Shown here piece by piece: positions 24,343 through 26,584 of a stretch of DNA of 26,639 bases. The DNA is taken from IMG/VR virus record IMGVR_UViG_3300032295_000123, positions 1 through 26,639 of that record. One strand, 5' to 3'. The DNA is from a virus (Duplodnaviria > Caudoviricetes). A program made the position numbers and the translations under genes. The notes beneath the pieces were generated by a model. It was not told the origin of the DNA. It did no database searches and saw only the letters and a program-made list of their open reading frames with translations. Positions within the stretch are counted from its first letter, which is position 1. Every line of letters begins with the position of its first letter.

Positions 24343-24864
24343 TTAAGCGATACGAGAGAACACGTAAGCTGTTGCGCTGGCAAACATGATGCGGAAGCAA
24401 CCAATGCCAGTCACACCGTTAGCAACAGTCAACAGGCCAGCACCAGCACCAGAGCCAGCGGCGGCGGCGGCAGACAAAATACCGTTTGTAGCTACAGCAA
24501 TCGTGACTGTGTTTGCACCAGCAGTGTTATCAACGTACAAGTCCAGCGTAGTACCGCGAGTTGCACCAAGGGCAGTGCCAAGGTCTGTGCCAGTAGGCAA
24601 AGTGATGGTTGTGGCTGCGGCTGAAGTGGATGTGATGTAGCCAGTTGCAACTTGTGCCGCAGTGGCTGTGGCGGTTGCGTTGATCGCGGCAGTTGTTGGG
24701 TGGTTTTGATCAGTGAACACCAAATTGGTGGTCGTCAGATTGGTTACGCTGGTGGTTGCACCAAAAGTGGCGTCCACGGTAACAGCACCAGTGGTGTCGT
24801 TGATAGAGATGTCTTGAAAGCCGTTTACTGAACGAACTGGGCCGTTGAAGGTCGTATTAGCCAT
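24343..24864 (-). CDS. Putative capsid decoration / head accessory protein (173 aa)
   Basis: MANTTFNGPVRS N-terminus, Thr/Ala-rich beta content with TITLP motif, first structural gene after the capsid gene. Confidence 0.65.
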   Translation of the reverse strand: MANTTFNGPVRSVNGFQDISINDTTGAVTVDATFGATTSVTNLTTTNLVFTDQNHPTTAAINATATATAAQVATGYITSTSAAATTITLPTGTDLGTALGATRGTTLDLYVDNTAGANTVTIAVATNGILSAAAAAGSGAGAGLLTVANGVTGIGCFRIMFASATAYVFSRIA

Positions 24865-24870
24865 GATGAT

Positions 24871-24947
24871 TCCTCATGCGGTTAAGGCGTATCTGTCTGC
24901 ATGATGTCGGCCCGGAGCCGTCAGATACACCGGAAAAGTCCGGGGGT
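24871..24947 (-). ncRNA. Candidate structured cis-regulatory RNA leader (stem plus two pseudoknots)
   Basis: 10-bp stem 24922-24931 / 24886-24895, inner hairpin 24908-24920, complementary pairs 24911-24916 / 24939-24944 and 24899-24904 / 24874-24879 next to the RBS. Confidence 0.55.
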
Positions 24948-24953
24948 TGTGTG

Positions 24954-24982
24954 TTTGTATCATGGGGCGGAGGGGGTGTCAA
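24954..24982 (-). promoter_or_regulatory. Sigma70-type promoter
   Basis: Minus strand TTGACA (24982-24977), 17 nt, TACAAA (24959-24954) with TGn extension. Confidence 0.75.
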
Positions 24983-25562
24983 CGAGTTTGTTGGACTTTT
25001 TCAAGTTTTCTTCTTGGGTGATCACACGCAGATTCCACGGCACATGCAGCCCACAAACTACCGGGTTGATAAGCGGCACGATGTGATCGACCACGTAGCG
25101 CTCGCCCGTGATCTTTGTAAGTTGTGCGGCTTGTTCATAGAGATGCCGCATAGTCTGCTTTTGCACTTTGGTGACCCAAGGTGGGGTTGCGTTACGGTGA
25201 CGGCGCTTGCGCACATTATTCAGAGTCGTGTAGTACTCAGGAAACTTTTCCTTGTGCCTGCGTTTGTATTCTTGTTTCTCCTCTAAGGGCCGTGCATTTG
25301 CACGAGCAACCACAGCTTCCTTGTTTCGTTTGTAGTATTCCTGTTTAGCGGTTACGCCAGCGTCAGATTTGTTGTACTCACGGAAATACTCCGCACGAGT
25401 TTCATTGCTCTTAGCCCATTCGACTTTCAGGCACTCAACACACGCGCCTTTGGTTTTACGTGGGGCTGTATGCCCGTGCTTGCACGGCTCCCCAGTGAAA
25501 TAGTATTTGGCTCCCGTGGCCTTGGCTTCGGCTCTGGTCTTGGGTAGGTTCGTGGTGTCCAT
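24960..25562 (-). CDS. Free-standing HNH endonuclease (200 aa), probable homing endonuclease
   Basis: AGGAG RBS before ATG 25562; N-terminal CKHGH...CVEC Zn motif, basic helical linker, C-terminal VDHIVPL...GLHVPWNL...EN..KSN HNH motif. Confidence 0.9.
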   Translation of the reverse strand: MDTTNLPKTRAEAKATGAKYYFTGEPCKHGHTAPRKTKGACVECLKVEWAKSNETRAEYFREYNKSDAGVTAKQEYYKRNKEAVVARANARPLEEKQEYKRRHKEKFPEYYTTLNNVRKRRHRNATPPWVTKVQKQTMRHLYEQAAQLTKITGERYVVDHIVPLINPVVCGLHVPWNLRVITQEENLKKSNKLVDTPSAP

Positions 25563-25569
25563 ATTGGCT

Positions 25570-25616
25570 CCTGTGTTACGACACAGGTAATGTACACGAT
25601 CTGGCGTAAAAAACAA
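25570..25616 (-). promoter_or_regulatory. RBS-sequestering hairpin and possible promoter for the HNH gene
   Basis: Minus strand CCTGTGT-CGTA-ACACAGG perfect 7-bp stem (25587-25570) covering part of AGGAG; TTGTTT-16 nt-TACATT just upstream. Confidence 0.5.
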
Positions 25617-25625
25617 GCGCCCAAG

Positions 25626-25646
25626 AAAAAGGGCCCCGAAGGGCCC
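25626..25646 (-). terminator. Rho-independent terminator after the capsid gene
   Basis: Minus strand GGGCCC-TTCG-GGGCCC-TTTTT. Confidence 0.85.
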
Positions 25647-25672
25647 TCTTAGTAGTACTTTTGGTACTAAGT

Positions 25673-26584
25673 TCAGGTCGAACCTGAAGAACCGAACATA
25701 CCCAATGGGTCTGACCAGCCGAACGAATAACGCTCGCGGGCCTTGTAACGGACGTTGCCAGTGTCAAAGTCTCCGTCCATTGAGTTCTGGAGGGGGGTAC
25801 GGACAAAGTGCTTCAGACCGTTAGGCACGTCTGTGGTCAAGAACCAAGCGTTGGTGTCAGTCAAGAAGTGGTTGACTGTGTAGCCTTCAGGGATAGCGCC
25901 CATCTGCTTGATAGCGTTGATGTCGTTATCCGCTGTAGACACACGCAGCTCAGTGTCCAACAGGCGCTTGGCCGTGAACATCAGTGCTGGTGGAACAATC
26001 AGCTTCTTAGGCTTAGCAGCAATCAGCAGACCACGTTCATCCGTCCAAGCGGCGATCTGAATAACGGCGGCTTCCAAGGAAGTCTCGTTCAAATCCGATT
26101 GTGTAGAAGGGGTGTTGCTGTTGACGCCACCAGAGATCAAGGGGTGGTTTGCGTTGAACAAAGACACGCCATCGCCACCGGGGTAGCTGCTGGAGAAGCC
26201 GTTGTTCAGGACCGCAGCGGCCTTGACTTGCTTGGTGTATGCCATGGCACGAGCCAGAGACTTGGTGTAACGAGCAGACAAGCTGTCGTACAAGTTATCT
26301 TCGATCGCTTCTTCAGTGATCGAGAAACCCAAGGCAATGGTTTCGTGGGTGTATCGAGTAGACCATGCTTCCTGAGCGTTGTCATACGCAATGGCAGAAC
26401 CTTCGTTCTTGACCGGTGCGGCTGAGAAGCCAGACAGCTTGGTTTCCTCTTCAAACGAACGCTCAGAAGTCTCAGTTTCGTAGATTTCTTTGTGTTCTTC
26501 GCCGTAGCGAGCGTACTCCATACCGAACAAAGCGTTCAGACCCGGGAGCAACTCTTTCAGCAGTTGTGCGCGTGAAATAGCCAT
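25673..26584 (-). CDS. Major capsid protein (303 aa)
   Basis: MAISRAQLLKELLPGLNALFG N-terminus, KPKKLIVPPAL, AWFL.TD, YKARERYSFGWSD motifs of Mu gpT-like HK97-fold capsids; followed by strong terminator. Confidence 0.9.
   Translation of the reverse strand: MAISRAQLLKELLPGLNALFGMEYARYGEEHKEIYETETSERSFEEETKLSGFSAAPVKNEGSAIAYDNAQEAWSTRYTHETIALGFSITEEAIEDNLYDSLSARYTKSLARAMAYTKQVKAAAVLNNGFSSSYPGGDGVSLFNANHPLISGGVNSNTPSTQSDLNETSLEAAVIQIAAWTDERGLLIAAKPKKLIVPPALMFTAKRLLDTELRVSTADNDINAIKQMGAIPEGYTVNHFLTDTNAWFLTTDVPNGLKHFVRTPLQNSMDGDFDTGNVRYKARERYSFGWSDPLGMFGSSGST

Follow-up and report, generated by a model that had tools for sequence, protein, structure and literature searches.

The question raised by this locus is what a leader of about 75 bases does between a promoter-like site and the ribosome binding site of a small gene that follows the capsid gene of a phage. 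The window, i.e. the whole stretch of 26,639 nt analysed here (IMGVR_UViG_3300032295_000123), is the virion module of a phage with a Mu-like gpT-type capsid protein. On the minus strand the capsid gene is followed by a terminator-like hairpin, an endonuclease gene, a sigma70-like promoter, the leader element and a gene for a protein of 173 aa (Table 1). The capsid protein exceeds the cut-offs of both PF10124 and PF25209 and is 63-73% identical to the capsids of HTVC023P, HTVC027P, DSL-LC04 and Pag-Yong1; a sequence search against the PDB gave no match for it. An initial annotation, made from the letters of the window, had described the leader as a double-pseudoknot RNA, and the string it quoted (24947-24862) is found letter for letter on the minus strand.

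Table 1. Features of the locus (positions in the window).
Feature	Position	Strand	Basis
Major capsid protein gene, Mu-like gpT family, HTVC023P-type / DSL-LC04-like	25673..26584	-	PHROG 371 major head, E 6e-24
Terminator-like hairpin and T tract, downstream of the capsid gene	25623..25647	-	Read from sequence
Inserted 200-aa endonuclease gene, between capsid gene and leader	24960..25562	-	PHROG 1035 endonuclease VII, E 2e-17
Sigma70-like promoter: TTGACA (24982-24977), 17 nt spacer, TG-extended TACAAA (24959-24954)	24954..24982	-	Sequence
Alternative 5' hairpin P0, CCGGA/UCCGG (24943-24939 / 24934-24930)	24930..24943	-	Lineage-limited
PK1 5' strand CCCGGA	24939..24944	-	Covaries with P3 loop
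P2 (10-bp main stem), 5' strand	24922..24931	-	9/9 counted pairs changed on both sides, 96.6% paired
First GAC triplet	24922-24920	-	First base is the last G of the P2 5' strand
P3 hairpin CGG/CCG, loop CUCCGGG	24908..24920	-	Middle pair complementary in 138/138 rows, four pair types
PK1 3' strand UCCGGG, in P3 loop	24916-24911	-	Covaries with PK1 5' strand
Second GAC triplet	24908-24906	-	
P4 arm, closed by the lone inferred pair C24906-G24897	24897..24906	-	C-G in 240/240
PK2 5' strand UCAUGC, in P4 loop	24904-24899	-	Pairs with GCAUGA
Third GAC triplet	24897-24895	-	
P2, 3' strand	24886..24895	-	Covariation
PK2 3' strand GCAUGA; its last two bases are the first two of the SD	24874..24879	-	240/242 vs 1.6% in swaps
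Shine-Dalgarno (SD) GAGGA	24871..24875	-	Sequence
ATG of the regulated gene	24864	-	Sequence
Regulated gene, 173-aa likely capsid decoration/spike protein, MxxTTFxGPV N-terminal arm	24343..24864	-	Slot annotation in relatives

Taken alone, the leader of the window does not exceed chance in nested folding (z -1.47; equally good folds in 13 of 200 shuffles), and the case for a structure therefore rests on comparative evidence. BLASTN of the element against cultured phages gave no match; homologues were instead found via the capsid protein. The cultured phages HTVC023P, HTVC027P and DSL-LC04 carry copies with different yet complementary strands, two of which alter nearly all PK2 bases, and no copy was found in Pag-Yong1 and two more distant cultured phages. 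A search with the downstream protein yielded 80 loci, 78 with sufficient upstream DNA, and 76 of these 78 fit the core expression. L079 was recovered by the covariance model (55.5 bits). The leader of L029 has lost its 5' half and begins immediately past a -10 box (L029:2900-3000), which may be a natural deletion or an assembly artefact.

Over all sets the gap-free 25-nt core is present in 242 of 349 distinct leaders, some of the search patterns having fixed part of it. Among these fixed-geometry leaders at least five Watson-Crick pairs are formed by PK1 in 236 and by PK2 in 240, compared to 3.1% and 1.6%, respectively, with swapped partners; two of the 242 (L524, L541) are reduced leaders that had been parsed wrongly, and without them 240 remain. 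The pairing of both pseudoknots is also seen in the sets anchored on proteins, for which no RNA pattern was used in selection. When 62 sequences are aligned with plain MAFFT, 87.7% of the cells pair versus 26-41% in slid controls, PK1 being only 64% paired because its linker varies in length. With 138 rows registered, the 21 variable pairs of the model rank ahead of all others among 1,326 column pairs; the outer pseudoknot strands were registered by complementarity, so that the swap controls are fairer there. By parsimony, a single PK1 pair has co-changed as many as 11 times and a single PK2 pair as many as 4 times. Covariation across homologues thus extends to the 10-bp stem, the inner hairpin and the two pseudoknots of the initial annotation, and judging from these sequence comparisons the doubly pseudoknotted leader is real. 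The inner hairpin stands in a shorter form, as the family keeps three base pairs (CGG/CCG) and not the four proposed; the 4-bp hairpin and the 6-bp PK1 both claim G24911. In the minimum-energy fold of the window's leader the PK2 3' strand forms a hairpin with the AUG, but this pairing is unselected (own partners 62/240 versus swapped partners 672/2,400).

Overlooked so far was the conserved core of the element, a three-way junction of three GAC triplets with single-A linkers. The first G and the third C top P2, the first C and the second G close P3, and the second C and the third G likely close a third arm (P4), so that each GAC leaves one A unpaired at the junction; in the window it is C24906-G24897 that likely completes the three-way junction. 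The triplets read GAC/GAC/GAC in 184 of 240 leaders and AAC/GAC/GAU, a compensated form, in 44 of 240, and they are kept while the stems turn over. All of 88 protein-anchored leaders have the second C and 86 have the first A, and the parser demanded neither. Because the closing pairs of P4 and P3 are invariant in the double-pseudoknot class they have no covariation support, and the third arm is to this extent inferred; in the nearest-neighbour model the lone P4 pair even costs energy (-13.3 vs -14.8 kcal/mol). A single U-G variant of the P4 closing pair occurs, in L486, a leader of the Mu-gpT-DE type described below, and in L079 the third junction A is replaced by G. Only about seven bases of the element are near-invariant. 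The junction letters survive even where P3 is down to one pair (L470, L482, L521).

A 5' hairpin (P0) competing with PK1 and the main stem had also been proposed. It is real in the main freshwater lineage, i.e. the CCCGG-loop class, where it can form in 132 of 135 leaders against 10.5 expected, and it is near absent in several other lineages (2/26, 0/12 and 1/14 in three other classes). Folding only the first 20-45 nt gives P0 as the minimum-energy structure, and in stepwise folding it is the earliest to appear; these models predict it to be an early co-transcriptional fold. As a universal switch of the family it was rejected due to its near absence in several lineages, and no alternative ON fold is conserved family-wide.

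The promoter claimed at the edge of the element is present as promoter-like letters, with a predicted start at about 24947 that places the PK1 5' strand at the transcript 5' end. A consensus scan did not list it, as the -10 has no T at position 6. Such scanning also listed no terminator in the window, the hairpin behind the capsid gene included, and no terminator separates the element from its downstream gene. A -10-like hexamer lies 7-9 nt upstream of PK1 in 128 of 236 homologues versus about six per position in shuffles, and 68 of 236 have none upstream of PK1. Some copies (L212, L219, L297) directly follow a terminator-like hairpin and have no space for a promoter. In L219, L230, L241, L245 and L290 the leader is preceded by a strong hairpin without T tract and without visible promoter, and it is therefore likely co-transcribed with the capsid gene in this lineage.

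The protein encoded behind the leader has no Pfam or PHROG hit. The gene in the same slot is annotated as cement protein in DSL-LC04 and as minor capsid protein in Pag-Yong1, and a structure model of modest quality (pLDDT 66) has the Pa223 capsid spike as its best PDB match, which is weak (E 0.013); matches in a viral library are mostly unnamed phage and giant-virus proteins. The product is likely a decoration protein. A gene with the same N-terminal arm comes next in all 236 evaluable pattern-picked viral loci, 4 of 240 being too close to the contig end. In a metagenome scan with a pattern for the core only, 108 of 118 matches were evaluable, and an arm gene follows 55 of the 55 with PK1 and none of the 53 without PK1. 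We take the latter 53 of 108 as chance matches, and host-gene copies were rejected on this ground. Five prokaryote assemblies gave five matches, located in four of them; four lie on the phage-like contigs that had brought these assemblies in, and the fifth is likewise upstream of an arm gene. PK2 and the ATG are 8-17 nt apart in 236 of 236 leaders, which for this distance were collected from ATGs, so that the unbiased count of linkage is the 236/236 for the arm gene. The capsid gene ends upstream of the element in 154 of the 176 loci that have at least 400 nt of sequence. The element is widespread among aquatic phages, and by estimate about 3,100 IMG/VR stretches fit one freshwater-type pattern alone.

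Comparing 234 downstream proteins reveals a shared short N-terminal arm and 15 families beyond residue 12 (e.g. L001, L095, L082, L083, L105, L117). This combination suggests, as far as sequences can tell, that a capsid-surface domain is swapped modularly among these proteins. A second arm-bearing gene without a copy of the leader follows the first in L399 (position 2072), L514 (2069) and L232 (1765).

Every genome with a model hit has one copy of the element (4/4). In the window and five near-whole genomes junction-like sites elsewhere do not exceed chance, with a descriptor that missed the G004 copy; a regulon of such sites was therefore rejected.

The search of Rfam 15 with the window that the initial annotation had advised gave no hit, yet the element is structurally related to the Rfam family RF03012 (Mu-gpT-DE). 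This motif reportedly originates in Weinberg et al. 2017. In Rfam it is an orphan motif of 53 positions filed as 'Gene; sRNA', whose structure line shows neither pseudoknot nor third arm, and the main text of PMC5737381 does not contain 'gpT'. With a cut-off of at least 49 bits the RF03012 model finds nothing in the window, in 20 related loci or at the element in 5 records, while Roseobacter phage CRP-902 as a control scores 72.3 bits. What both share is the location downstream of a Mu-like gpT capsid gene (in the window PF10124 above cut-off), the slot between this gene and an arm-bearing gene (CRP-902), and the core P2-A-C[hairpin]G-AC...GA-P2'; the long loop of Mu-gpT-DE can pair with the translation start region. 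They differ in that the window copy has a 10-bp P2 ending 10 nt upstream of the SD, a 3-bp P3, the 5' pseudoknot and a PK2 partner upstream of the SD, whereas Mu-gpT-DE has a 4-bp P2 containing the SD, a P3 of at least 5 bp and no PK1. The short SD-containing outer stem and the long inner hairpin of Mu-gpT-DE are thus absent from the window copy, and neither covariance model detects the class of the other.

Leaders of further kinds connect these two classes. Intermediate leaders (L473, L478, L479, L490, L494, L500) combine PK1 with a start-codon pairing of the Mu-gpT-DE type; the covariance model of the element gives them 15-27 bits and leaves the Mu-gpT-DE-type leaders unscored. In 28 Mu-gpT-DE-type and intermediate leaders, a class that was defined by pairing, the P4 loop is complementary to the start codon and tracks the second codon: 19 leaders combine GCC and AUGGC, and 9 combine CCC and AUGGG; cross-codon swaps pair in 24 of 342 cases. 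Leaders chosen solely by a GCCA loop start with AUGGC in 102 of 108 cases and never with AUGGG, compared to a background of 27/59 for AUGGG. Reduced leaders, which were selected by eye, contain exactly three GACs in 16 of 16 cases (48 observed versus 11.9 expected), and three of them have the perfect junction as their minimum-energy fold, in which P2 contains the AUG and P4 encloses the SD. Both the Mu-gpT-DE-type and the reduced forms lack PK1. Every form occupies the SD flank, the SD or the AUG, and the intermediate and reduced forms bridge the window class and Mu-gpT-DE. In a capsid tree the structural classes are interspersed with mixed support, and we claim no order of events.

Therefore the leader is a further structural variant of the orphan motif Mu-gpT-DE that lies outside the membership score of Rfam, and it probably works like, and is homologous to, this motif. 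Due to this kinship the novelty of the element is lower. Our literature search returned no paper describing it; the supplement of PMC5737381 or the alignments of PMC10690425 may hold it, and it may be among the 8,495 unnamed candidates of PMC10690425. Three of the six supplementary text files of that paper contain no match to the motif.

As to function, the initial annotation had offered a translational switch, either riboswitch-like or protein-binding, or a small ribozyme. A cis-acting translational leader is well supported: the helices covary, the downstream gene is always of the same kind, and the ribosome binding site or AUG is occluded in every class, all of which have the structure overlapping or adjoining these sites. 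Of the options given, protein binding is the likeliest. We see about an even chance, arguing from sequence comparisons, that the leader serves as a translational operator and that a phage protein, perhaps the product of the downstream gene itself, clamps it. The comparisons show that the P3 loop pairs with the 5' end and the P4 loop with the strand beside the SD; the folded state may then block loading of the 30S subunit. A point against this reading is that in the double-pseudoknot class the SD mostly lies just outside PK2 (of 240 homologues, 207 have it 1-2 nt past the pseudoknot and 23 have the two overlapping), so that blocking would be steric. A phage protein would bind the GAC junction and clamp the fold; the simplest candidate is surplus unassembled decoration protein, possibly as a trimer fitting the near three-fold junction, or else another virion protein. 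Such clamping could match the supply of decoration protein to the number of capsids, and the 5' pseudoknot might add stability and shield the transcript 5' end. Two points favour the operator: even very loose folds retain the junction letters, and there is one site per genome. Against it speaks that the shared N-terminal arm, short and by its sequence mostly uncharged, appears a poor candidate for an RNA-binding surface; since the 15 families share only this arm, the binder could be another phage protein. That the near three-fold junction docks a trimeric decoration protein, so that the leader would count free trimers and shut off synthesis, is a tentative model which we consider possible but doubtful.

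A self-forming fold might also act without any ligand, as an attenuator that sets a fixed low initiation rate and as a shield against 5'-dependent decay, in a topology that loosely resembles flaviviral xrRNA. PK1 starting 0-2 nt from the predicted start, given the 7-9 nt distance to the -10 in 128 of 236 homologues, would suit such a shield, as would the three copies without promoter room, in which the fold could halt processing of the 5' end. An attenuator does not need fixed junction letters, however, and these persist even with a one-pair P3; a shield is also hard to reconcile with the absence of PK1 from the Mu-gpT-DE-type and reduced forms, and we regard this explanation as unlikely. The invariant unpaired junction bases could line a cavity in which a small molecule or an ion would stabilise the pseudoknot that blocks the RBS. 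Several translational riboswitches have a pseudoknot adjoining the SD, as here, and the main freshwater lineage has a competing 5' hairpin, but the target is always one virion gene (236/236; 55/55) and never a metabolic one, no Rfam riboswitch matches, and the very loose reduced forms seem too unconstrained for a small-molecule pocket. Without an association to metabolic genes the riboswitch proposed in the initial annotation becomes quite unlikely.

Its ribozyme branch fares worse still. Size and two pseudoknots would fit a small self-cleaving ribozyme, and HDV-like and twister ribozymes are similar in both respects; the strand order, compared by eye, is unlike that of HDV-like, twister and pistol ribozymes, no Rfam ribozyme matches, only the seven or so near-invariant bases are available, and relatives lose one or both pseudoknots but retain the junction. 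Self-cleavage is the least credible of the readings weighed here. An RNA acting in trans or in the virion, as a released small RNA or as a scaffold binding capsid or portal, would agree with the own promoter, the compact fold, the location in the head module and the 'Gene; sRNA' label that Rfam gives to Mu-gpT-DE. Yet no terminator lies between element and gene, the pairing follows the start codon and the second codon, and the ATG distance is fixed, which makes this very improbable.

For the translational operator favoured here there are precedents. The E. coli S15 leader is an autogenous pseudoknot operator. T4 gp32 binds a pseudoknot upstream of its own gene (PMC10690425). Like these, the element is a pseudoknotted leader beside the ribosome binding site of a gene whose product would be balanced against an assembly partner; unlike these, the product is a likely virion surface protein without known RNA binding, and the likeness meant is one of arrangement. 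The GP20-a and GP20-b leaders and related phage motifs are likewise orphan structured RNAs right before a phage gene of the structural region and proposed to be cis-regulatory (PMC10690425), but their downstream gene is another one, and the element has no Rfam match. If the trimer-docking model holds, Mu-gpT-DE would gain a function, and HTVC023P-type phages would share with their freshwater relatives a sensor of capsid stoichiometry made of RNA. What Rfam lists as a narrow orphan motif becomes a family that has a defined core, gains two more pseudoknots and is tied to a specific target gene. Because cultured phages carry the double-pseudoknot form (HTVC023P, HTVC027P, DSL-LC04) as well as the Mu-gpT-DE form (CRP-902), the function is directly testable.

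The gap between capsid gene and leader is a hotspot of insertion (e.g. L024, L242, L260, L346, L350, L387, L409). More than 150 nt of extra DNA separate capsid gene and element in 39 of 154 loci, and the inserts include endonuclease-like genes and small ORFs. Insertions related to the endonuclease gene of the window, which we take to be of the HNH type, are present in L024, L346 and L350. A 7-bp hairpin (25570-25587, minus strand) lies over the SD of this gene, just past a promoter-like site. Translational silencing is known for phage homing endonucleases, and the hairpin recalls it, but it is statistically weak (equally good folds in 13 of 200 shuffles). The promoter of the leader in the window is embedded in the last codons of the inserted endonuclease gene.
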